DNA of 41,895 bases from Verrucomicrobiia bacterium. GTDB lineage: Bacteria > Verrucomicrobiota > Verrucomicrobiia > Limisphaerales > UBA11358. Below, in pieces: positions 2,020-36,852 of this stretch. The notes below the pieces were generated by a model. The model was not told where the DNA came from and did not search any database. It saw only the letters and a program-made list of their open reading frames with translations. Positions within the stretch are counted from its first letter, which is position 1. The number at the start of each line of letters is the position of its first letter. The position numbers and the translations under genes are program-made. The stretch lies in assembly GCA_041482195.1 (NCBI GenBank), contig JBGPDH010000002.1, positions 1 through 41,895 on the forward strand. The letters are read 5' to 3'.

Positions 2020-3522
2020 ATGAAAAGTTTTAGAGTTTTCTCGTTTTTTTTCTTCGTGGCCCTGACGGCCGCCGCCCAAACCAGCACCGATACGGTCGCC
2101 GGTCGTCCTATGTCCCTGCTGGATTGCATCCGGGAATCGTTGGCGCACAACTTCGACGTGCAAATCGAACGTTATAACCCTCAGATCGCGCTTTATGTTC
2201 TGAATGCAACTTACAGCGGCTACGACCCGACCTTCAACTTCACGGGCCAGCATAACTACAACAATAGCGGTCCCCGATACGAGAACGGCCAACTCATCCT
2301 TGGGTCGGTGTCCGAACAGGACAATTTTAATTCGGGCTTTACCGGCGGAACCCCCTGGGGGATGACCTATAATCTCAGTGGCAACATTTCGGATAGTAAC
2401 ATCGGGACCAACAATAACTTCGGGCTGCATAACAACTTCGGGGCGATCTCGCTCCAAGCCAGCCAGCCGTTGTTGAAGAATTTCTGGATTGATTCCACAC
2501 GCCTGAACATTCGCGTGGCCAAGAACCGGCTGAAATTTTCCGAGCAAGGGCTGCGCCTGCAGCTTATCACCTCCGTCACCGCGATCATCAATGCGTATTT
2601 CGAACTCATCTTTGCGGAGCAAAATGTGCAGGTGCAGCAAGAAGCGTTAAACCTGGCCCAGACGCAGCTCGACCAGGACAAGCAACGCGTGCAGATCGGC
2701 ACACTCGCCATTTTGAGCGTGCAGCAGGACGAGTCGCAATTAGCCCAGAGCAAAGCTGCTTTAATCTCCGCACAAAGCACACTCGACACGGACGAAAACG
2801 CCCTCAAAAACCTGCTGACCGACAGTTATTCCCAATGGCACGATGTAAACATTCAGCCCACGGCCACGCTGGAGGCGACACCACAATCGTTTGATTTGCA
2901 GAACAGCTGGAATGCGGGCCTGAATCAGCGTCCCGACCTGTTGCAGGCCAAGCTGAATGTGGAAGCGCAGGGCATCCAGTTGAAGTACTACCGCAACCAA
3001 CTATTCCCGGAGATTAACCTGATTGGGACCTATGGTTTCAACGGTTCTGGCGGACTATCCAGCGATTACAATGGCACCTTAAACCAGTTCGGACAGGGTA
3101 ATTCGCCGTTTTACAGTTACGGCGCCGCGTTGACGATGCCGTTGAGCAACGTCGGACCGCGCAACCAATATAAATCCACCAAGGCGACGTTGCAGCAGGT
3201 CTTGTTGCAGCTCAAGCAGTTCGAACAAAATGTCATGGTGGAAATTGACAACGCGGTGAAGACGGCGCAATCCAAGTACGAAAGTGTGCAGGCCACGCGG
3301 CAAGCAAGGATTTACGCCGAGATCGCACTCGATGCCCAACAGAAAACCTACGCGGTCGGCAAGGCCACCACCTTCGAGGTGTTGACATATCAAAACAACC
3401 TGACCGCCGCCCGTTCGGCGGAAATCCGGGCGCTCGCTGATTATAACGAGGCGCTCGCCACTCTGGCACAGCAGCAGGGTACGACCCTGGAACAGTACAA
3501 CGTCAATCTCGAGGCGAAGTAA
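2020..3522 (+). CDS. TolC-family outer membrane efflux protein
   Basis: Track ORF 1972-3522. I moved the start to ATG 2020, which gives a classic signal peptide (MKSFRVFSFFFFVALTAAAQ). The two-repeat helical/beta architecture and motifs (LSLLDCIRESLAHNFDV..., ...TFEVLTYQNNLTAARSAEIRALADYN) are typical of outer membrane efflux proteins. Confidence 0.85.
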   Translation: MKSFRVFSFFFFVALTAAAQTSTDTVAGRPMSLLDCIRESLAHNFDVQIERYNPQIALYVLNATYSGYDPTFNFTGQHNYNNSGPRYENGQLILGSVSEQDNFNSGFTGGTPWGMTYNLSGNISDSNIGTNNNFGLHNNFGAISLQASQPLLKNFWIDSTRLNIRVAKNRLKFSEQGLRLQLITSVTAIINAYFELIFAEQNVQVQQEALNLAQTQLDQDKQRVQIGTLAILSVQQDESQLAQSKAALISAQSTLDTDENALKNLLTDSYSQWHDVNIQPTATLEATPQSFDLQNSWNAGLNQRPDLLQAKLNVEAQGIQLKYYRNQLFPEINLIGTYGFNGSGGLSSDYNGTLNQFGQGNSPFYSYGAALTMPLSNVGPRNQYKSTKATLQQVLLQLKQFEQNVMVEIDNAVKTAQSKYESVQATRQARIYAEIALDAQQKTYAVGKATTFEVLTYQNNLTAARSAEIRALADYNEALATLAQQQGTTLEQYNVNLEAK

Positions 3523-3530
3523 TTTTATTT

Positions 3531-3599
3531 TCCTCGTCTTTTCGTCCTCGACCGCGAAAAGTCGAATTCGATAACGAGAACGAGGAGGACGACGAGGAG
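3531..3599. repeat. CTC/GAG triplet-type imperfect inverted repeat (family F2, copy A) between the convergent TolC-like and CPBP genes
   Basis: The left arm is tcctcgtcttttcgtcctcg (3531-3550) and the right arm is cgagaacgaggaggacgacgaggag (3575-3599). The arms are complementary, with mismatches. The same word set (cgtcctcg / gaggacgag / cgagaacgag) recurs at 16743-16806. Confidence 0.7.
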
Positions 3600-3608
3600 T
3601 ATTCGGAA

Positions 3609-4304
3609 TCACCAGAACTGCCACGCCCCGCGCCAGATCACCCAGGCACCCAACAGAAAATTGGTAATCGCGTGCGCCGTCATGGCATCGCCCAGCCGGT
3701 TCTTGCGCAGCACCAGCCATTGATAGGTCATGCCGCACAGGATGCCGGCCAGCCATTGAAAATGGGAAAGGCCGAACACGGCCGCCGTCACCAAAAATGG
3801 TATCGGCAGAAACCGGTTGAGCGGAACGGACAGAAAATCCGGCTTGTTGAGGTAGCGATACAAAAACGAACGGTAAAATGCTTCCTCCAGCGGAGGTACC
3901 ACCAGAGTGGAGCCGAGAATCCGGGTCACAATCATCAGCCACGCCAATTCGGAATTTTGGCCAAATTGCAGGTGAGGATTCCAAACCGCTCCGCTCTTCA
4001 TGAATTTCGGATAAAACGGGTCCAATCCGACCCACATGACAAACACACCTATGCCGACAACGACCGCTTCCCAGCTCAGGGTCCAGCGCATTTCGGAAAC
4101 GAACGGGCGCATTGCCCAAATCAACCAGATGGCGATCAGAGTCTTGGCCAGGTAAAACCAGTACGCTGAGGCTGCGCCGAATTGGCCCTGACAGGATGTC
4201 AAGGCGAGGAAAATGATGAACGGTGCCACCCGGGCCGCCAGAGGCGATTTCCCCAGGAAATTCTTCAGGAATTGCACGCAGTACAATGACCTGAACTCTA
4301 CCAC
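3609..4304 (-). CDS. CPBP (CAAX protease-like) intramembrane metalloprotease, PEP-CTERM-locus type
   Basis: 231 aa and polytopic. All three CPBP motifs are present: EEAFYR (EExxxR), FGLSH (FxxxH) and HAITN (HxxxN). The GTG start overlaps the upstream gene end by 7 nt. Confidence 0.8.
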   Translation of the reverse strand: MVEFRSLYCVQFLKNFLGKSPLAARVAPFIIFLALTSCQGQFGAASAYWFYLAKTLIAIWLIWAMRPFVSEMRWTLSWEAVVVGIGVFVMWVGLDPFYPKFMKSGAVWNPHLQFGQNSELAWLMIVTRILGSTLVVPPLEEAFYRSFLYRYLNKPDFLSVPLNRFLPIPFLVTAAVFGLSHFQWLAGILCGMTYQWLVLRKNRLGDAMTAHAITNFLLGAWVIWRGAWQFW

Positions 4305-4777
4305 CGACTCAAGCTCAGAACTTTTGTTTCCGTGTCACTTCGAAGGGTGACCGAGTTCTTTGATATGGCAACCACCCGCAGCCCGGATACCTGGTCCCCG
4401 ACAAAGACGGTCTTGCCGTCCACAATCGCGCTGGGGCGTGTCGCCGTCAATAAGATGCCCTGCAGCTTAGGCTCCGACCTGGGTGCATCTGTGACGACGG
4501 TATTTGTATTTGACTGCGACGTTTTGGTTGCCACCCGCTGAGAGGTGGTGACCGGTTTCACTTGTGAGACCGCGGCCACGGACAGTGAATGTCGGGACAG
4601 CGATAGTCCAACGAAAATTCCGGTGGCAGCGAATAATAAAATAATCAGCACTGGTGCCAGCCATTTTCCGCCTCCCGACGTGGCCGTCTCGACCAGCGAC
4701 ATCGATGGCGGCTGGGACGGCGGAGTCTGTGGCTGCGATTGTTTGGTTTGTTTGAGGGCGTCGTTAATCAGGCTCAT
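4298..4777 (-). CDS. GspB/ExeB-like single-pass membrane protein (partner of the ExeA-type ATPase)
   Basis: 159 aa. It has an MSLINDALKQ N-terminus, a Pro/Gln-rich linker, one TM helix (WLAPVLIILLFAATGIFVGLSL) and a C-terminal beta domain (ILLTATRPSAIVDGKTVFVGDQVSGLRVVAISKNSVTL). It overlaps the upstream ATPase gene by 4 nt. Confidence 0.55.
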   Translation of the reverse strand: MSLINDALKQTKQSQPQTPPSQPPSMSLVETATSGGGKWLAPVLIILLFAATGIFVGLSLSRHSLSVAAVSQVKPVTTSQRVATKTSQSNTNTVVTDAPRSEPKLQGILLTATRPSAIVDGKTVFVGDQVSGLRVVAISKNSVTLRSDTETKVLSLSRW

Positions 4778-5589
4778 ACATGTATGTCTCCTTCAAGTTC
4801 GCGGATGGCTCGGTTAATCATCCGGTAGTTGATTCGTTCGGTTTGTTCGCAAAAACCGGCCAGGAGCGCTTTGTCACAAACGGCGTTGACCAGCCGTGGG
4901 ATGCCCCCGGTGTAATGGAAGAGGCGCCAGAACGCGGGATGCGTGAATTGCGGGGTGCCATCCGAGCCGGCGAGCTCCAGCCGGTGCTGGACATATTGGC
5001 TGACCTCGGCGCGGGTCAGCGGCGCAAGATGGTAACGCACGGTGATGCGCTGGCGAAGCTGCCGCAGGCGCGGGTTGTTCAGACGGTCGCGCAATTCCGG
5101 CTGACCGAGCAATACAATTTGCAACAGCTTGCGATCGTCCAGTTCGATGTTGGAAAGCAGCCGCACCTGTTCGAGCAGGTCGTCGGTTAAATCCTGTGCC
5201 TCGTCAATGATGAGGACGCAGTCCCGGCCGTTTTGCACCTGTTGCAGTAAATGTTCGTTGATGGTCGCTATGGTTTCCAGACGATCACGGCCCGTTATAT
5301 TCAGGCCGAATTCGGCAGCGACGGCCCGCACCAGTTCTTCCGCGCTCATCACGGGATTCAGAATCAGCGCCGTGGAAAAGCGGTCGTCCAGCTGTTCCAG
5401 CAGCGCGCGACACAATGTCGTCTTGCCGGCACCGACCTCGCCGGTCAGTTGAACGAAACCTTTGCGTTCGCGGATGCCGTAAAGTAAATGATTGATCGCC
5501 TCCTGGTGCTTCGTGCTGTGAAACAGGAACCGTGGGTTCGGGCTAATATCGAACGGCGCCTGTGTCAGACCATAATAATCCAGGTACAT
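4774..5589 (-). CDS. ExeA/GspA-family AAA ATPase (PEP-CTERM-locus secretion ATPase type)
   Basis: 271 aa. The N-terminus MYLDYYGLTQAPFDISPNPRFLFHSTKHQEAINHLLYGI, Walker A (GEVGAGKTT) and Walker B (LIIDEAQDL) closely follow the ExeA/GspA pattern. Confidence 0.85.
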   Translation of the reverse strand: MYLDYYGLTQAPFDISPNPRFLFHSTKHQEAINHLLYGIRERKGFVQLTGEVGAGKTTLCRALLEQLDDRFSTALILNPVMSAEELVRAVAAEFGLNITGRDRLETIATINEHLLQQVQNGRDCVLIIDEAQDLTDDLLEQVRLLSNIELDDRKLLQIVLLGQPELRDRLNNPRLRQLRQRITVRYHLAPLTRAEVSQYVQHRLELAGSDGTPQFTHPAFWRLFHYTGGIPRLVNAVCDKALLAGFCEQTERINYRMINRAIRELEGDIHV

Positions 5590-5649: not shown

Positions 5650-6795
5650 CTAATTGCGCAAAATTCGACGCACCGCAGCCACCAGGGCAGCCGCCTCTGC
5701 CGGCGTACCAATCGTGATGCGCAGGTAGCTCTTAACCTCCGGGAAATTGAACCAGCGGACGAGGATTTTCTGCCCGCGCAACCGGTGTTGCCACTCGTGC
5801 GCAGGGAAACGCAATGGCTGAACGAGGGTGAAATTGGTCTGGCTCGGAAACGCCCGGAAGCCCGACCTGGTCAGCTCGCGGCTCAACCAGTCGCGCGTGG
5901 CGAGGATCTTTTTGAAATTGGCGCGGTAATATTTCAGGTCGTTCAAAGTGGCCACGGCACCAGCCTGGCCCAGGCCGTTCACGTTGTAACTGTCGCGGAT
6001 TTTATGCAGAGCGGCGATGAGGTCGTGGTGTCCGATAAAATAACCGATGCGCTGGAAGCAAAGCGAGTAGGCCTTGGAAAACGTACGGGCGACGAGTACG
6101 TGAGGGTATTTCAGAGCCAGCCTCATCGCGTTCTCTTTTGCAAAATCAACGTAAGCCTCGTCGAGAATGACCAGGCCCTGCTGTGCGCGACAAAGTTTTT
6201 CCAATTCGGACGTCTGGTAACCACGTCCGCTCGGCGCGTTCGGAGTCGTTACAAAAGTTAACGCGGCGTCGAATTTCCAAATCCCGGTGCGTTTCAGTTC
6301 GGCGACCGTCGGCAGGGAGAAATCCGGTTTGAGCGGCACCCCATTCTTCGCCGCGCCGTGAATATCAGCCAGTACCGGGTACAACGAATAACTCGGTGTG
6401 AAGTATTGAACAACTTCGGGGGGGCGAGCTCTGCAAGTCCCTGACTTTTTTTGAATTGGGACTCGTATAACGCGTCCCTCCGGAACCGGCTCCACAAAAC
6501 ACCGCGTCGCCAGCGCCAATAACTCATCCGAACCGTTGCCCACGATGATGTTATCCGCGTGACAGCCGTGCAGCTTTGCCAGTTTCTCACGCAGCAGCTG
6601 GGCCGTTGGACTGGGGTACAATCGCAGCCGCCCGTCCACAGCCGCCTGGATAGCCGTCAGCACCTTCGGTGATGGCGGATAAGGGTTCTCGTTCGTGTTG
6701 AGCTTGATGAGCCCCTTGATCTTCGGTTGCTCACCATAAACGTAAGGATGCAACTCGCGCACCAGCGGGCGAATCAATCGCTTCGGGCTCTTCAT
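5650..6795 (-). CDS. hisC: histidinol-phosphate aminotransferase
   Basis: 381 aa. It has the LNTNENPYPPSP substrate motif, the PLP-lysine region (RTFSKAYSL) and DEAYVDF. Its start overlaps the hisD stop (ATGA). It carries an extra ~21-aa segment; see the repeat at 6418-6481. Confidence 0.9.
   Translation of the reverse strand: MKSPKRLIRPLVRELHPYVYGEQPKIKGLIKLNTNENPYPPSPKVLTAIQAAVDGRLRLYPSPTAQLLREKLAKLHGCHADNIIVGNGSDELLALATRCFVEPVPEGRVIRVPIQKKSGTCRARPPEVVQYFTPSYSLYPVLADIHGAAKNGVPLKPDFSLPTVAELKRTGIWKFDAALTFVTTPNAPSGRGYQTSELEKLCRAQQGLVILDEAYVDFAKENAMRLALKYPHVLVARTFSKAYSLCFQRIGYFIGHHDLIAALHKIRDSYNVNGLGQAGAVATLNDLKYYRANFKKILATRDWLSRELTRSGFRAFPSQTNFTLVQPLRFPAHEWQHRLRGQKILVRWFNFPEVKSYLRITIGTPAEAAALVAAVRRILRN
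6418..6481 (-). repeat. ~64-68-bp palindromic element (family F1) inserted in-frame in hisC
   Basis: The coding-strand sequence is GGAGGGACGCGTTATACGAGTCCC-AATTCAAAAAAAGTC-AGGGACTTGCAGAGCTCGCCCCCCC. It is homologous to the two prmC copies and translates as EGRVIRVPIQKKSGTCRARPP, at a point where E. coli HisC (recalled from memory) has only ~4 residues. Confidence 0.85.
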
Positions 6796-10657: not shown

Positions 10658-11401
10658 TTACATCACCATGCCGCCGTCCACGGCCAGGACCTGGCCCGTG
10701 ATGTAACGGGCCGCCGGGCCGGCCAGGAACACCGCCGCGCCCGCAATGTCGTCGGGCTGCCCGAAATTGCCCAACGGAATTTGCTTCAGCACCGTGGCGC
10801 GAAACTCCTCCTTTAAGCCCGCGGTCATGTCCGTTTCGATAAATCCCGGGGCCAGTGCATTCACCGTGATGCCGCGGGAAGCCATCTCGCGCGCCACCGA
10901 CTTCGTAAAGCCAATCAACCCGGCCTTGCTCGCCGCGTAATTACACTGGCCTGCGTTGCCGATCAAACCGATGACCGAGGCCACATTGATGATGCGTCCG
11001 GAACGCTGCTTGAGCAGCGCCCGGCTGAACGCCTTCGTAAACAGAAAGGCGCCTTTCAAATTCGTGTCCAGCACCGCGTCCCAGTCCGCCTCGCTCATGC
11101 GCATCAGCAAATCATCCCGCGTCACCCCGGCGTTGTTTACCAGGATATCCACCCGGCCGCAGTCGGTCAGGATTTTTTCGGCAGCAGCACTGACGGCAGC
11201 AGCGTCCGCTACATCCACGGCATGCGCCCAGGCTTTGCGGCCCAGGGCGCGGATTTCTCCGGACACCTTTTCGGAGTTTTCCTGCGTGCGCGAAACGGAG
11301 GCGACATCCGCCCCTTCGGCGGCAAATTTCAACGCGATGGCGCGGCCAATGCCCCGGCCCGCGCCGGTGACGACAGCGATTTGGTTGGCAAGTTGACTCA
11401 T
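10658..11401 (-). CDS. fabG: 3-oxoacyl-ACP reductase
   Basis: Track ORF 10658-11476, trimmed to ATG 11401 (MSQLANQIAVVTGAGRGIGRAIA). It has the SDR Rossmann motif TGxxxGIG, the NNAG motif and catalytic YAASKAG. The upstream 25 codons of the track ORF are the intergenic hairpin. Confidence 0.92.
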   Translation of the reverse strand: MSQLANQIAVVTGAGRGIGRAIALKFAAEGADVASVSRTQENSEKVSGEIRALGRKAWAHAVDVADAAAVSAAAEKILTDCGRVDILVNNAGVTRDDLLMRMSEADWDAVLDTNLKGAFLFTKAFSRALLKQRSGRIINVASVIGLIGNAGQCNYAASKAGLIGFTKSVAREMASRGITVNALAPGFIETDMTAGLKEEFRATVLKQIPLGNFGQPDDIAGAAVFLAGPAARYITGQVLAVDGGMVM

Positions 11402-11417
11402 GTTTGAAATTGAGTGA

Positions 11418-11490
11418 GTAGGTTGTAGTGGGGAGTCAGTAGAAAGACCAGACGAAACGCAACCACTACTGACCACTGGCTACAAGCTAC
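11418..11490. repeat. imperfect 25-bp-arm inverted repeat in the fabD-fabG spacer (family F4-like)
   Basis: The left arm is GTAGGTTGTAGTGGGGAGTCAGTAG (11418-11442). The reverse complement of the right arm is GTAGCTTGTAGCCAGTGGTCAGTAG (11466-11490). 19 of 25 positions are complementary, with the mismatches clustered centrally. The right arm abuts the fabD stop. Confidence 0.7.
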
Positions 11491-12419
11491 TAACTTGCCA
11501 ATGCCTTGGCAGTGGCTTCCAAACTCGCCACGTCCGCCACGTTCAACATCTGTACTTTTTTGTCAATCCGCTTCATAAAACCGCTCAACGCCGTGCCGGG
11601 ACCGAGTTCGATGAAGCACGTGAACTCCTGGGCCAGCAGCGTGCGCATCGATTGTTCCCAGAGCACCGGTGACGTGACCTGCTCGACCAATCGCTCCCGG
11701 ATGCCGCTCGGTCGGCCATGCGGCAGCGCGGTCACGTTTGAGATCACCGGCACATTCGGAGCTGCAAGGTTGATTTTCTCCAGTTCGGTTTGCAACTTTG
11801 GCCGGGCGCCGGCCATGAGGGGCGAATGATAAGCACCGGCGACGGGCAGCGGAATCGCGCGCTTGGCACCCCGGGCTTTGGCCAGATCAACGGCTTTGGT
11901 GATTTTGTCTGCTTCGCCTGAGATCACCAGCTGGCCCGGACAATTGAGGTTCGCCAAAACGACACCGGCTTCGGCGCAAACTTCACGTGTCGGCGCCACA
12001 TCCAGGCCGATGACCGCCGCCATGCCGCCGCGCGTGACGTCACAGGCTTCCTGCATAAATTGACCGCGCTGGCGCACCACCCGCAGGCCGTCCTCAAAAC
12101 TCATCGCCCCCGCAGCCGCGAGCGCCGTGAATTCACCGAGCGACAATCCGGCGGTCGCCTCAAATTTCAAATCAGGCACTTGTTCCTTGAGCAGCTCAAA
12201 CGCAATCCAACTGGCGAGAAAAATACCCGGTTGCGCGTTCCCGGTTTTGGTCAGTTCCGGTTCCGGCCCGTTAAAGCAAATACCAGCAAGGTCATAACCC
12301 AGGACGGTGTTGGCGCGGTCGAACCACGCTCGGGCGGAGGGAAATTTTTCCGCAAGGTCCCTGCCCATGCCGACAACCTGCGCGCCCTGTCCGGCAAAGA
12401 GAAGTGCGGTTTTGCTCAT
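11490..12419 (-). CDS. fabD: malonyl-CoA:ACP transacylase
   Basis: 309 aa. It has the FAGQGAQ N-terminus, the active-site nucleophile motif GLSLGEF (GxSxG) and AGAYHSPLM. Confidence 0.92.
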   Translation of the reverse strand: MSKTALLFAGQGAQVVGMGRDLAEKFPSARAWFDRANTVLGYDLAGICFNGPEPELTKTGNAQPGIFLASWIAFELLKEQVPDLKFEATAGLSLGEFTALAAAGAMSFEDGLRVVRQRGQFMQEACDVTRGGMAAVIGLDVAPTREVCAEAGVVLANLNCPGQLVISGEADKITKAVDLAKARGAKRAIPLPVAGAYHSPLMAGARPKLQTELEKINLAAPNVPVISNVTALPHGRPSGIRERLVEQVTSPVLWEQSMRTLLAQEFTCFIELGPGTALSGFMKRIDKKVQMLNVADVASLEATAKALAS

Positions 12420-12481
12420 TGAGTGCGCGAACTAAACACCAATTTGGGTCCCGATGAAAGCAGAGAATATTCGGGATTTGT

Positions 12482-15779: not shown

Positions 15780-16778
15780 GTGACCGTCCTCGAAGCGATT
15801 CAGAAAAGCACGGAATTTCTGGCCAAAAAAGGCTGCGAATCGCCGCGCCTGCAGACCGAATGGCTGTTGGCACATCTCCTCCAAATGCCGCGCATGAAGT
15901 TGTATCTGAACTTTGAACGCGGGCTGACCGTGGCGGAGACGGACGCGTTGCGTGAACTCGTCAAACGCCGCGGCCAACATGAACCCCTGCAACACCTTAC
16001 CGGTTCAACTTCGTTTTGCGGACTGGAAATTCTCGTGAACCGTCATGCCCTGGTGCCGCGACCGGAAACAGAATTGCTCGCCGAAGAAGGCTGGCAATTC
16101 CTGAATGGTCTATCGGCGGGGCGAGTTACACGAGTTCCTGAAATCCAAAGAGGAGTTGGAGACTCGCAGAGCTCGCCCCTCCGGGTGTTGGACCTCGGCA
16201 CCGGCACCGGGTGCATCGCCATTGCCCTGGCGGTCAAATGTCCCGACACGAAAATTATAGCTACCGACCTCTCGTCGGACGCACTGGCACTGGCCAGGGA
16301 AAACGCGGCACGCCATGGGGTTGCCGGGCGCATTCAGTTCTTACAGGGTGACGGCTTTGCCGCACTTGAATCGGAAGGACGAGTTACACGAGTCCCGGAA
16401 TCAAACCTGGACATTGGGGACTCGCTGAGTTCGTCCCTCCGAAAATATGATCTGATTGTCAGCAATCCACCCTACATTCCGTCCGTTGAAATCAACTCAT
16501 TGCAACCGGAAGTGCGGGATTTTGACCCGCACGCCGCACTGGACGGCGGGGCGGATGGTCTCAATTTTTATCGGATGTTTTCGTCACAGGCGCAATCGTT
16601 TTTAAAGCCGGGTGGCAAGCTCATGCTGGAATTCGGCGACGGCCAGGCGGAAGCCATCCGACGGATTTTTGAGACGGAAAAGTGGATTGTCGAAGCCATG
16701 AAGGAAGACTACTCTCACCGCGCCAGAATCCTGATCGCCAAATCGTCCTCGTCATCGTCCTCGTCATCGGAAGATTGA
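15780..16778 (+). CDS. prmC: peptide chain release factor N5-glutamine methyltransferase
   Basis: 332 aa with a GTG start. It has the SAM motif VLDLGTGTGCIAIALA and the catalytic motif IVSNPPYIP. It contains two 23-aa in-frame inserts (F1 repeats) and a poly-Ser C-terminal tail encoded by an F2 repeat arm. Confidence 0.9.
   Translation: MTVLEAIQKSTEFLAKKGCESPRLQTEWLLAHLLQMPRMKLYLNFERGLTVAETDALRELVKRRGQHEPLQHLTGSTSFCGLEILVNRHALVPRPETELLAEEGWQFLNGLSAGRVTRVPEIQRGVGDSQSSPLRVLDLGTGTGCIAIALAVKCPDTKIIATDLSSDALALARENAARHGVAGRIQFLQGDGFAALESEGRVTRVPESNLDIGDSLSSSLRKYDLIVSNPPYIPSVEINSLQPEVRDFDPHAALDGGADGLNFYRMFSSQAQSFLKPGGKLMLEFGDGQAEAIRRIFETEKWIVEAMKEDYSHRARILIAKSSSSSSSSSED
16115..16182 (+). repeat. 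68-bp palindromic element (family F1), in-frame copy 1 in prmC
   Basis: The sequence is GGCGGGGCGAGTTACACGAGTTCC-TGAAATCCAAAGAGGAGTT-GGAGACTCGCAGAGCTCGCCCCTCC. The terminal arms GGGGCGAG / CTCGCCCC and CGAGT / ACTCG are complementary. It translates as SAGRVTRVPEIQRGVGDSQSSPL, immediately before the LDLGTG SAM motif. Confidence 0.88.
16373..16440 (+). repeat. 68-bp palindromic element (family F1), in-frame copy 2 in prmC
   Basis: The sequence is GGAAGGACGAGTTACACGAGTCCC-GGAATCAAACCTGGACATT-GGGGACTCGCTGAGTTCGTCCCTCC. It translates as EGRVTRVPESNLDIGDSLSSSLR, immediately before the NPPY block. The arm changes relative to copy 1 (GGGGCGAG/CTCGCCCC versus GGACGA/TCGTCC) are compensatory. Confidence 0.88.
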
Positions 16779-16806
16779 AACCGAGGAGGAGGAGGACGAG
16801 AACGAG
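16743..16806. repeat. CTC/GAG triplet-type imperfect inverted repeat (family F2, copy B) spanning the prmC stop and murA leader
   Basis: The left arm is tcgtcctcgtcatcgtcctcgtcatcgg (16743-16770), the loop is aagattgaaa, and the right arm is ccgaggaggaggaggacgagaacgag (16781-16806). The pairing has a mismatch at roughly every third position. The left arm encodes the SSSSSSSSSSED tail of PrmC. Confidence 0.7.
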
Positions 16807-18078: not shown

Positions 18079-18143
18079 TTAGAGCCGTTTCAAAAATTCT
18101 GTGACCCCCAAGAGGCTTGATCCCGTGAAACAGCGCCAGCGTC

Positions 18144-18218
18144 CTGGACTGCGGCAGTCCCCTGCCGCTTTCCAACGCGTCGTGATTTCCAAAAGCGGCG
18201 GAGGACCGCCGCAGTCCA
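18144..18218. repeat. inverted pair of GGACTGCGGC...GCCGCTTT hairpin units (family F3, arrangement U-U')
   Basis: The units are TGGACTGCGGCAGTCCCCTGCCGCTTT (18144-18170) and AAAGCGGCGGAGGACCGCCGCAGTCCA (18192-18218). 23 of 27 positions are complementary. Each unit is also a hairpin on its own (GCGGCAG/CTGCCGC and GCGGCGG/CCGCCGC). Confidence 0.8.
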
Positions 18219-18285
18219 AAACCTCGCGGAATTTACTGGCCGCACTTCCGAAGCTGGCTGCGGTTTTATTGAAGATGCTCCAAAA

Positions 18286-18342
18286 GGCGGGAACGGTTGG
18301 CGCGCACCCACAAATTCGGATGCGAACTGCACCGTTCCCGCC
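18286..18342. repeat. 12-bp perfect inverted repeat with 33-nt loop
   Basis: GGCGGGAACGGT (18286-18297) pairs with ACCGTTCCCGCC (18331-18342). On the plus strand it is followed by AGTTTAATTT, so it may contribute to murA termination. Confidence 0.55.
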
Positions 18343-18354
18343 AGTTTAATTTCC

Positions 18355-18443
18355 CCACAAAATAAAAGAGCGCGACGGGCGGCCGTTGACACGGGTGTCC
18401 CGCATTGCGGGATTCACACCGGTGTCAACGGCTGCCCGCGCGC
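18355..18443 (-). terminator. long GC-rich hairpin plus U-tract: intrinsic terminator of the 112-aa minus-strand gene
   Basis: The arms are GCCGTTGACACGGGTGT (18382-18398) and ACACCGGTGTCAACGGC (18416-18432), with 16 of 17 positions paired. An extension pairs 18370-18381 with 18433-18443. The loop contains an inner hairpin, CCCGC-att-GCGGG. On the minus strand the stem is followed by TCTTTTATTTTGTGG. Confidence 0.6.
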
Positions 18444-25277: not shown

Positions 25278-27371
25278 TTAGATTTTTTCAAACGCGGTGA
25301 CCGGAGTCCGGGTTACCAGGGCCCGCGCCTGGCGGATCAAATCCAGATCGTCTGCCAGGTTGCCGAAACGAAAACGCGGCAAGCCGCTCTGCCGCTGCCC
25401 CAGCAATTCGCCCGGCCCGCGCAACCGCAAATCCATTTCGGCGATGCGAAAGCCGTCCGTGGTCTCCGCCAGCACCCGGAGCCGGGCGCGGGCCTCGTCG
25501 GTTCTGGCATCGGAAATCAAAATGCAAAAGCTCGCGTGGGCACCCCGCCCGATGCGCCCGCGCAACTGATGCAACTGCGCCAGACCGAATTGCTCGGCAT
25601 TTTCAACCAGCAGAAGCGTGGCGTTCGGCACGTCCAGCCCCACCTCAATCAATGCCGTGGCGACCAACGCCTGGACGTGGTTGGTACGGAAGGCCGCCAT
25701 CACTTCCTCCTTTTGCCGGCCAGGCAAACGCCCATGCAACAATCCGGCACGATAGGGGGCAAGCGTGCGTTGGATGTTCTCGAATTCCCGGGTCACTGCC
25801 TTGATGTCGCCGGCTGTGTCCTGTTCCTCAACGCGCGGATAAACCACATAGACCTGACGGCCGGCGGCCAGTTTTTCACGGACAAATTCCCAGACCTGCG
25901 GAAGCTTGTCGGTTCCCCGCACGAACGTCTTCACGCGTCCGCGTCCGGCCGGGAGTTCATCGATTACCGAAACATCCAAATCGCCATACAGCGTCAACCC
26001 CAGCGTGCGTGGAATCGGGGTGGCCGTCAGCACCAGCAGGTGGGGATAATTTCCTTTTCGGAGCAATTGTTCGCGTTGCACCACGCCGAATTTGTGCTGC
26101 TCGTCAATGATGACCAGGCCGAGTCCTGGCAGGACGAAGTCGCCGGTGAGCAATGCATGCGTGCCGATGAAAAGGTTGACCGGTGACGAGTGACGGGTGA
26201 CATGATTTGCCGGTGGGGAGTTCTGGTCACTTGTCACAGGCCACTGGTCATCAGCTGTCTTGTGGCTTCCGGTCTGGAGTTCAACCCGGATCTCCAGCGG
26301 TTCAAACCACTTTTGGAAATTGCGGAAATGCTGTTCGGCCAGGATTTCCGTCGGCGCCATGAGCGCCACGTTGTAACCGCTTTCCAGCGCCATCAAAGCC
26401 GTGCAGCCGGCCACAACGGTCTTCCCCGACCCGACGTCTCCTTGCAGCAGGCGACGCATCGGGTGCGCACCCCTCATGTCCGCGCGGATTTCGCGGAGCA
26501 CGCCCGTCTGCGCACGGGTGAGCTGGAAAGCGAGCCGGGTGAGAAATGGTTTCATCAGGCGGTTATTGCCGCCGCAAGGCAGTCCGCGCGCTTTCGCCTC
26601 AAAATGTTTCCGGCGTGACCGGATTTCGAGTTGTAGCGCGATAAATTCATCCAGCGCCAGGCGTCGCCGCGCGATTTCCAGATCGGTCAATTCTTCGGGA
26701 AAATGCACCATCCGGATCGCGTTGGCGCGGGCGGGAAAAAGCTTCGGGTCGGGCGCCGGTTTCGGTTCGGCAATTTGCGATTGAAATGTTTCCAGCGTCC
26801 GCCAGATGAACCCGCGCAGCCAGCGTTGGGGCAGACCTTCTGTCAGCGGATAAATCGGTGCGATGCGATTGATGTGGATGAAGTTTTCTCCGCCGCCTTC
26901 GACGACTTCGGTTTCGGGGTGATCCATCGTGCGCGGTTTGGTTTCGACGAGCTTGCCGAAAACAAAAACCTCGTCGCCCACCGCGAAAAACTTCTCCATG
27001 AACGGCAGGTTCCACCAGCGGCAATGCAGTCGCGCCGAACCGTCATCGAGAACAAATTCAAAAACGGACTTCCTTCCGCCGCGAAAACGCCTGAGTCCCT
27101 GGGCGACGATCGTGCCGCGGGCCGTGGCCGCTTCCTCGCGGCTCAATTCGGCAATGACGCGGAAATGCCGGCGGTCCTCATAACGTCGGGGGCGGTGCAG
27201 CAGTACATCCTCGATGGTATGAATTTCCAGGCGCGCGAACTGGGCGGCCCGTTCTGCGCCGACGCCCCGGAGCGAAGTGACCGGCCTGCGCAACGCGGGC
27301 GTGGCTTCGTCCCGGCTGGGCGGGACTGCCAGCGGTGCATTTGTGGATTCCAACGGCGCCATCGGACGCAC
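25278..27371 (-). CDS. recG: ATP-dependent DNA helicase RecG
   Basis: 697 aa. It has a wedge domain and SF2 helicase motifs: GDVGSGKTVVA, MAPTEILAEQH, VIIDEQHKFGV, LTATPIPRTL and QLHQLRGRIGRG. It contains an atypical 24-codon palindrome-encoded segment; see 26178-26249. Confidence 0.95.
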   Translation of the reverse strand: MRPMAPLESTNAPLAVPPSRDEATPALRRPVTSLRGVGAERAAQFARLEIHTIEDVLLHRPRRYEDRRHFRVIAELSREEAATARGTIVAQGLRRFRGGRKSVFEFVLDDGSARLHCRWWNLPFMEKFFAVGDEVFVFGKLVETKPRTMDHPETEVVEGGGENFIHINRIAPIYPLTEGLPQRWLRGFIWRTLETFQSQIAEPKPAPDPKLFPARANAIRMVHFPEELTDLEIARRRLALDEFIALQLEIRSRRKHFEAKARGLPCGGNNRLMKPFLTRLAFQLTRAQTGVLREIRADMRGAHPMRRLLQGDVGSGKTVVAGCTALMALESGYNVALMAPTEILAEQHFRNFQKWFEPLEIRVELQTGSHKTADDQWPVTSDQNSPPANHVTRHSSPVNLFIGTHALLTGDFVLPGLGLVIIDEQHKFGVVQREQLLRKGNYPHLLVLTATPIPRTLGLTLYGDLDVSVIDELPAGRGRVKTFVRGTDKLPQVWEFVREKLAAGRQVYVVYPRVEEQDTAGDIKAVTREFENIQRTLAPYRAGLLHGRLPGRQKEEVMAAFRTNHVQALVATALIEVGLDVPNATLLLVENAEQFGLAQLHQLRGRIGRGAHASFCILISDARTDEARARLRVLAETTDGFRIAEMDLRLRGPGELLGQRQSGLPRFRFGNLADDLDLIRQARALVTRTPVTAFEKI
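26178..26249. repeat. 72-bp imperfect palindrome occupying exactly 24 codons of recG
   Basis: The left arm is GACCGGTGACGAGTGACGGGTGAC (26178-26201). The reverse complement of the right arm is GACCAGTGGCCTGTGACAAGTGAC (26226-26249). 18 of 24 positions are complementary and the loop is 24 nt. It translates (minus strand) as DQWPVTSDQNSPPANHVTRHSSPV. Confidence 0.75.
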
Positions 27372-36690: not shown

Positions 36691-36787
36691 AGCGGTGCTA
36701 AAGTCACCGCAGTCCAGACGCTACGCGACTGCCGGACCTGGGCGAACCACGCGAAGCGTTTGGACTGCGGCGGTTGACCGCCGCTTT
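36691..36787. repeat. inverted pair of family-F3 hairpin units in the permuted arrangement (U'-U), forming a ~97-nt extended hairpin
   Basis: The units are AGCGGTGCTAAAGTCACCGCAGTCCA (36691-36716) and TGGACTGCGGCGGTTGACCGCCGCTTT (36761-36787). The stem continues through GACGCT / AGCGTT. It uses the same GGACTGCGGCGG / CCGCCGCTTT words as 18144-18218. Confidence 0.8.
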
Positions 36788-36852
36788 CGATTGGCGGCGT
36801 CTGACGCGGCTGCTTCAGCGCCCTTCTGCGGCTATAGGTTTTTGAATCTGCT

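Follow-up and report, generated by a model that had tools for sequence, protein, structure and literature searches.

In REPIN-RAYT systems, doublets made of REP (repetitive extragenic palindromic) units form hairpins (REPINs) and come with a RAYT, the tyrosine transposase associated with REPs (Bertels & Rainey 2011, PMC3116915; Nunvar 2010, PMC2817692; Ton-Hoang 2012, PMC3333891). REPINs are defined as lying "almost exclusively in extragenic space" (10.1101/2021.07.10.451892). Intragenic REPs were catalogued earlier, with the top GTAG count in the verrucomicrobium Opitutus terrae (about 70 listed entries), in which REP singles and dimers lie in frame in known genes, the dimers encode 20-30 amino acids (aa), uvrA holds double insertions, and flexible loops were given as the explanation; the reoccupation of one loop by different REPs was reported only for Xanthomonas recB, at about the same site (Di Nocera 2013, PMC3733652). 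In-frame palindromic repeats are also described in Rickettsia genes (Rickettsia palindromic elements, RPEs; Ogata et al. 2000, as summarised in PMC10969869). Here, we report a palindromic element in a stretch of 41,895 nt from a Verrucomicrobiia bacterium (contig JBGPDH010000002.1, positions 1 to 41,895; hereafter the window), which carries two copies in frame inside prmC, the gene of the release-factor glutamine methyltransferase, and a third one in frame in hisC. The copies belong to a repeat family of defined anatomy, which is mostly located in frame within genes, at sites polymorphic among orthologs in PrmC and HisC, is associated with RAYT genes, and falls into loops of the predicted PrmC model. 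We consider it probable that the element is a REPIN-like doublet, mobilised in trans by a RAYT partner and tolerated in frame as surface loops of the host proteins.

The closest known system is REP/REPIN-RAYT and not specifically the RPEs, which the first-pass annotation of this DNA had named as the precedent. Like REPIN-RAYT, the window-type family (type 1 below) has inverted conserved arms, a less conserved spacer, a hairpin formed by the whole element and many copies across the genomes scanned. Target-site duplications are lacking, its arms are also found on both sides of a RAYT-family gene, and copies are vertically inherited at orthologous sites across species. Unlike the extragenic REPINs, the window-type family is about 72% intragenic and in frame, the element is short (64-90 nt), each arm has a weak stem of 5 bp, and the host belongs to Verrucomicrobiota, in contrast to Gammaproteobacteria for the well-studied systems. 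The element is also small, non-autonomous and built as an inverted repeat, as are MITEs, the miniature transposable elements with inverted repeats. MITEs such as Correia/NEMIS and Nezha originate from insertion sequences of the DDE type and generate target-site duplications. They, too, occasionally create in-frame fusions, but our element shows no target-site duplication and its putative partner enzyme is an HUH/Y1 protein.

With the intragenic REPs of O. terrae our insertions share the in-frame location in verrucomicrobial genes, double insertions per gene, dimers of 20-30 aa, and the explanation by flexible loops; GTAG...CTAC tags are carried by other inserts that relatives have at these PrmC sites. 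Because of these REPs (PMC3733652), the earlier suspicion that such insertions were undescribed in genomes of the Planctomycetes-Verrucomicrobia-Chlamydiae (PVC) type is wrong for the kind. Unlike the GTAG/CGTC REPs of Di Nocera, type 1 has neither tag, and its copies are mostly intragenic, whereas that survey found REPs mostly in intergenic DNA with intragenic ones as the exception. A RAYT-linked, GTAG-less and mostly intragenic family, read in all frames and orientations, and the turnover of many families at a few housekeeping loops appear to go beyond the prior record. As for the RPEs, PMC10969869 describes palindromic repeats in frame in many unrelated housekeeping genes at fold-compatible positions, which is the situation here; by the same description RPEs are set apart by their length (about 100-150 bp), by their hosts in Rickettsiales and by a conserved peptide per family, whereas the window-type element uses all three frames and both orientations.

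Anatomy of the element and its family

The prmC gene (15780..16778, plus strand) is a 332-aa open reading frame (ORF) that matches TIGR03534 (PrmC) at 3.4e-76 in a profile search. Copy A occupies positions 16113..16184 and PrmC residues S112-R135, with the 5' arm at 16113-16138, the loop at 16139-16158 and the 3' arm at 16159-16184; copy B occupies 16371..16442 and residues S198-R221 (5' arm 16371-16396, loop 16397-16416, 3' arm 16417-16442). Both are on the plus strand and 72 nt long, i.e., a 26-nt arm, a 20-nt loop and an inverted 26-nt arm, which together make 24 codons. The spans 16115-16182 and 16373-16440 given by the first-pass annotation are exact for the GG...CC part, and the terminal YC/GR extends them to 72 nt. 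Copy A directly precedes strand β1 (VLDLGTG) and copy B directly precedes strand β4 and the NPPY motif. The two copies align without a gap, their arms being almost identical, both are in frame without a stop inside the prmC ORF (an example of an insert-host junction peptide is VTRVPESNLDIGDSLSSSLR), and as RNA they fold at -39.9 kcal/mol (copy A, z -4.7) and -36.9 kcal/mol (copy B, z -4.5), so that the earlier description of two homologous palindromic copies in frame in prmC holds. A compensatory change in the stem had been proposed as well: the two copies do differ there by G-C versus A-U, but covariation between the arms across the family is not above shuffle controls.

Copy C (6416..6483, minus strand, 68 nt; minus-strand reading ...PEGRVIRVPIQKKSGTCRARPP...) lies in frame in hisC (5650..6795, minus strand), a 381-aa ORF for histidinol-phosphate aminotransferase, which matches TIGR01141 at 2.8e-86 in two stretches divided at the insert. 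Its 5' arm shares the frame of copies A and B, and its 3' arm is in a different frame; as RNA it folds at -33.9 kcal/mol (z -3.4). The 5'-arm pattern, which chance alone would give 0.12 times in the window, is matched three times there, and none of 100 shuffles reached three. A covariance model trained solely on 50 copies from other genomes recovered exactly three sites in the window, i.e., copies A (E 8e-11), B (E 2e-12) and C (E 8e-11), all at E values of about 1e-10 to 1e-12. The density is thus three copies in 42 kb, all three within genes. An Rfam search of the region gave no family matches.

A pattern scan of the family over one genome per species yielded at least 120 matching stretches, nearly all in metagenome-assembled genomes (MAGs) of Verrucomicrobiota, Limisphaerales included, and no single MAG contributed more than 5 of the 80 listed loci. 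Three pattern matches without arms are due to chance (L051, L116 and L079; loci carry L numbers throughout). Several true copies lie on contigs labelled Bifidobacteriaceae, Sulfopaludibacter, Sulfotelmatobacter, Aquilonibacter or Akkermansia muciniphila (L023, L029, L032, L037, L047, L077, L028, L041, L003, L031 and L073), and these non-matching labels are probably taxonomic mislabels of Verrucomicrobiota MAGs.

The arm is 26 nt long (YCGGAGGGACGAGTTACACGAGTCCC) and is present as an inverted pair around a variable loop of 9-35 nt, the whole element being 64-90 nt with the consensus (tt)YC-GGAGGGACGAGTTACACGAGTCCC, loop, GGGACTCGTGTAACTCGTCCCTCC-GR(aa). The ends, YC-GGAGGG...CCCTCC-GR, are conserved, and conservation decays there over about 4 nt. 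There are two main arm variants, with the cores TTACA and CTCTG. Inverted arm pairs number 122 versus 17 unpaired arms, and no target-site duplication was found, its length being 0 in 116 of 122 copies. This is the architecture of a REP doublet (REPIN). The long hairpin is 90.8% paired across the family, and the 5-bp stem inside each arm (GGGRC...GYCCC) covaries, with 17 doubly changed cells versus 4.8 expected (0/500 shuffles); an isolated single arm folds weakly as DNA (-3.8 to -5.1 kcal/mol), no better than shuffles. We also considered a single arm as the mobile unit, by which any insertion would be in frame whatever the loop length, and this is ruled out since the arms are nearly always paired. 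Please note that partial arm fragments (for example TTTCGGAGGGACGAGTT ... AACTCGTCCCTCCGAAA) abut full copies in L092 (3763-3845) and also in L064, L019, L011, L106 and L090, which suggests insertion into or beside an older copy, or extension of the palindrome.

Reading frame and location in the host proteins

Copies far enough from the locus ends to be judged number 109. Among these, 78 (72%) are deep in frame within a long ORF, i.e., with at least 30 codons on both sides in an ORF of at least 150 aa, 11 are in a long open frame close to one end, 13 are intergenic-like and 7 are frameshift-like. Since random 72-nt windows drawn from these loci land in long ORFs in 78.7% of cases, there is essentially no avoidance of coding sequence. 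All three reading frames and both orientations of the element are used, the 5' arm giving EGRVTRVP, RRDELHES or GGTSYTSP and the 3' arm GDSQSSSLR, GTRVTRPSE or QGLAELVPP, depending on the frame. Stop-free frames of the consensus arms are five of six for variant V1 (one TAA in one frame) and six of six for V2. The orientation of V1/V2 heterodimers relative to the host gene is 24 to 12, which is not significant.

Loop lengths of orthologous copies differ by multiples of 3 in 10 of 11 pairs, and the best 120 PrmC matches are all intact full-length ORFs, with both arms in the same frame and the loop length varying by whole codons. Frame-preserving evolution of this kind points to translation of the inserts. 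The hairpins are very stable as RNA (-37 to -40 kcal/mol in prmC), as one would also expect of elements that stay untranslated, i.e., are cut from the mRNA or bypassed by the ribosome in the manner of T4 gene 60 or the mitochondrial "byp" elements. Removal or bypass would leave frame and stops unconstrained, yet 78 deep in-frame copies and 11 near an ORF end stand against 7 frameshift-like ones; the multiples of 3 and the intact PrmC ORFs speak against it too, and the single orthologous set compared outside long ORFs does differ by 1 nt (53 nt in L036 versus 54 nt in L045 and L119). We regard it as very improbable that the elements escape translation in this way.

The two PrmC segments are missing from E. 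coli HemK (1T43/2B3T), which aligns on either side of both, residues 198-221 of copy B being unmatched. Most of 150 diverse PrmCs (representatives of 50%-identity clusters) are 280-300 aa long, with alignments interrupted at query residues ~102-133 and ~197-222, in agreement with the statement in the first-pass annotation that E. coli PrmC has neither residue block. Among 120 close homologs aligned at 70-94% identity, the named ones of which are Limisphaerales or Verrucomicrobiota MAGs, both site A and site B are polymorphic. Most carry the window element, a short sequence is present at site A in the homologs P0009 and P0012 and at site B in P0074 and P0092, and others have one of about ten unrelated peptides (counted by eye), such as EGRRVGDP..TAARRPSQ, GRADLPVGQDAQQRVPT, GQASCLSPS..ETGGTPVL, WGERPREP..GSPGVSPH, SERGQLVRE..RTGCPRS and FGVRRRVGA..DMSPHSK. 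The DNA of three alternative occupants forms strong hairpins in every case (-40 to -53 kcal/mol), and two of the three have the GTAG...CTAC/CTGC form of a REP dimer (site A of L123 and, approximately, site B of L121 with GTAG...CTGC). The hisC site behaves in the same way, with orthologs at least 79% identical carrying the window element, at least eight other families, or the short GPKSKVQNPKS. In L121, hisC (2329-3574) and murA (10993-12425) are each called as two fragments, the hisC break being near the element site; these could be frameshifts of the long-read assembly or a real disruption.

The polymorphic sites and the lack of the segments in E. coli HemK and diverse PrmCs therefore indicate lineage-specific hotspot insertions in PrmC, with the HisC site likewise polymorphic, which is what the ortholog alignment proposed earlier was to establish. 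Both segments are found in most close relatives, and this alone would agree with ancestral, lineage-specific loops of verrucomicrobial PrmC that resemble each other through internal duplication or convergence. Such an ancestry is refuted, however, by close relatives that are short or different at each site, by the same nucleotide element at 120 or more loci in unrelated genes and in intergenic DNA, and by the diverse PrmCs without the segments; conservation is, moreover, at the DNA level and in all reading frames. We give it virtually no credence.

The AlphaFold model of PrmC was built on a diverse 78-sequence alignment; a shallow alignment of 36 close homologs gave a predicted local distance difference test (pLDDT) score of 44 and was unusable. 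The model has a pLDDT of 91.8 and a predicted template modelling score (pTM) of 0.89, and its target-normalised template modelling (TM) score versus E. coli PrmC in the RF1 complex (2B3T) is 0.92. Besides the extreme C-terminus (poly-Ser tail), low-confidence residues are confined to ~112-132 and ~199-222. The copy A segment (pLDDT 58-73) is largely coil with one predicted 3-residue helical turn at 121-123, and the copy B segment (pLDDT 50-56) is coil; they lie immediately N-terminal to β1 (134-139, VLDLG) and β4 (223-228, DLIVSN), respectively. The protein model, another check that had been suggested, hence places the inserts in low-confidence coil loops outside the core. Strands β1 and β4 are neighbours in the class I methyltransferase fold, and S-adenosylmethionine (SAM) and the substrate bind at their C-terminal ends. 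Inserts located N-terminal to these strands should therefore emerge on the opposite face, and judging from this standard topology both PrmC inserts probably sit on the Rossmann-sheet face opposite the SAM/NPPY site.

RAYT genes and the mode of spread

All ORFs in ~1 Mb of loci were screened for RAYT genes; the queries were approximate and used as leads only, and hits were re-verified with curated models. Three RAYT-like genes were obtained (L057, L098 and L042), two of which are flanked by window-type arms. In L057, complete 5' and 3' arms (4030-4057 and 4614-4641) enclose ~550 nt encoding a 163-aa protein, which reaches 83.6 bits against the NCBIfam model NF047646 "REP-associated tyrosine transposase" (curated cutoff 80) and aligns with E. 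coli TnpA-REP (4ER8) at E 2.7e-7 through the HUH and Y..NP motifs. This unit is flanked by a direct duplication of ~95 nt, ~85% identical (3937-4032 and 4640-4735), which is the 3' end of the upstream host gene, stop codon included. In L098, a 162-aa RAYT homolog has a full type-1 hairpin on each side. The third gene, in L042, is a second RAYT type (222 aa, 89.4 bits) flanked by a different REP at 1425-1453 and 2202-2230, whose arms are 97% complementary and translated as ERGQLVRE, a peptide family that in other species occupies PrmC site B and the HisC site; a further insert family is thereby tied to a transposase of its own. Several RAYT/REP systems therefore coexist in the clade, and the same protein loops have been colonised by more than one of them. 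In L035 (~5001-5453) and L083 (~4950-5459), canonical IS200-type Y1 transposase genes (Pfam Y1_Tnp 90 and 84 bits, respectively) were also seen, 1.2-2.5 kb from type-1 copies.

The absence of a target-site duplication matches RAYT/IS200-type enzymes, which act on single-stranded hairpins and leave none. It is also expected if recombination or gene conversion between copies, or replication errors driven by hairpins, account for most of the spread and turnover of the element, the association with RAYT being incidental or historical. Soft ends and varying lengths, the nested or partial copies beside full ones in the six loci listed above, the ~95-nt duplication of host sequence around the L057 RAYT unit and the homogenisation of the arms across species also fit such a process. 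New insertions at many unrelated sites, however, require a transposition-like step, and RAYT genes with exactly these arms were found in two loci within only ~1 Mb sampled; TnpA-REP, for its part, is documented to generate linker variation (PMC3333891). Spread without a RAYT is in our opinion quite unlikely.

We accordingly keep to RAYT mobilisation of a REPIN-like doublet, for which the arms flanking RAYT genes and the published TnpA-REP biochemistry argue. Each insert would be one REPIN-like copy, consisting of two inverted 26-nt REP-type arms and a poorly conserved spacer, and this non-autonomous element would most likely be copied in trans by a RAYT (HUH/Y1) acting on single-stranded hairpin DNA. 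A frame-preserving insertion would add about 22-27 residues, the arms having almost no stops in any frame; selection would purge the other insertions, and the survivors would be found where the protein tolerates a floppy loop. The same loops, repeatedly occupied by different REP families, may act as landing pads or safe havens. TnpA-REP cuts single-stranded DNA at C|T sites with limited specificity, linkers included, and variation was proposed by the authors to be coupled to integration (PMC3333891). This limited specificity may plausibly lie behind the three length classes described below, with selection keeping the in-frame outcomes. The core of the first-pass annotation, i.e., a small non-autonomous palindromic repeat kept in essential genes by staying in frame, is supported by the repeat family, the RAYT-flanking arms, the site polymorphism and the evolution that preserves the frame.

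Several points weigh against this explanation. The L098 RAYT scores 78.4 bits, just under the NF047646 cutoff of 80, and Pfam Y1_Tnp gives a weak match or none for the two RAYTs with flanking arms. Unlike in REPIN-RAYT, no GTAG or CGTC tag is present at the arm end of the window-type family, which has GGAG in that position and CGTC solely inside the stem. The element length occupies all three classes modulo 3, each with examples deep in ORFs, and therefore a fixed-end cut-and-paste unit cannot explain it. The idea that the arms evolved to be stop-free is not statistically supported, as 18% of shuffled arms have no stop in any of the six frames. The translation that we propose is read from frame conservation. 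Ragged ends were considered separately as the cause of the three length classes and are unsupported, the terminal YC/GR being about equally conserved in all of them.

The arms are also more conserved than the flanking coding sequence (91% versus 84% identity in 11 orthologous pairs, with loops drifting to 68%), which could reflect a function at the level of the host as well. Selection would then keep them as mRNA hairpins tuning translation or decay, as protein-binding DNA sites, or as useful peptide loops; both prmC copies are retained in most relatives at 70-78% protein identity, and the REPIN literature favours long-term, possibly beneficial persistence (10.1101/2021.07.10.451892). Against this, the same arms turn up in genes that have no relation to each other, in every frame and either orientation, as well as between genes, and therefore a common peptide or a gene-specific role is unlikely. 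In close relatives the sites are freely taken over by unrelated families or are short, the model shows the inserts as low-confidence coil, and recognition by the RAYT or gene conversion among the many copies would likewise keep the arms conserved. A host function seems to us unlikely, and under RAYT mobilisation of a tolerated doublet the inserts would be neutral.

A broader proposal is that Limisphaerales-type REPIN-RAYT systems have coding sequence as their main habitat, with several coexisting RAYT/REP families that enter, and oust each other from, a small set of permissive surface loops in housekeeping enzymes (PrmC, HisC, RecG and others); we put this forward tentatively, as something that may or may not hold. 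If true, a sizeable fraction of the proteome would have loops of about 24 aa that are translated from hairpins, the textbook definition of REPs and REPINs as "extragenic" would be contradicted, and structure-targeted insertion, with existing hairpins as landing pads, would be suggested. The population biology of REPs and REPINs has been argued from a scarce non-coding "niche space", and the near-random coding occupancy seen here shows that coding loops can belong to the niche. Two PrmC loops and one HisC loop, occupied repeatedly and independently by about ten hairpin families, form a natural map of insertion-tolerant sites in essential enzymes, and the same loops are a tractable system for asking if RAYT-type enzymes are directed to hairpins already in place. 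The inserts also matter in practice when Verrucomicrobiota MAGs are annotated or used in phylogenomics: they inflate protein lengths, give spurious "conserved" peptides and may mislead alignments.

Other palindromes in the window

A fourth intragenic palindrome, of a different family with (GTGACNN)n-type arms, was seen at 26176-26251 in the RecG gene (ORF 25278..27371, minus strand). The peptide that it encodes, DDQWPVTSDQNSPPANHVTRHSSPV, directly precedes the IGTHAL helicase motif, and its folding energy in an 80-nt scan window is -43 kcal/mol. Hairpins related to it are present in L028 and L110, and a short version, VTRHLSLVT, occupies PrmC site A in L022.

Downstream of murA, an intergenic stretch of ~400 nt contains, within 18142-18441, at least three other palindromes (18145-18218, 18283-18345 and 18373-18441), the last of which folds at -65 kcal/mol, and a relative of 18145-18218 is found at 36759-36788 (within 36704-36788); therefore, the genome also carries ordinary extragenic REP-like repeats. 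At 11413-11495, an inverted repeat with 30-nt arms, rich in GTAG/CTAC, lies at the junction of the minus-strand ORFs 10658..11476 and 11490..12419 and may be another REP family. Just past the stop codon of prmC, a GAGGAGGAGGACGAG tract complements the DNA for the C-terminal poly-Ser tail (SSSSSSSSSED, a TCGTCC-type repeat), so that a hairpin at 16748-16806 spans the prmC-murA junction. A similar tract, GAGGAGGACGA, is located at 3570-3599.

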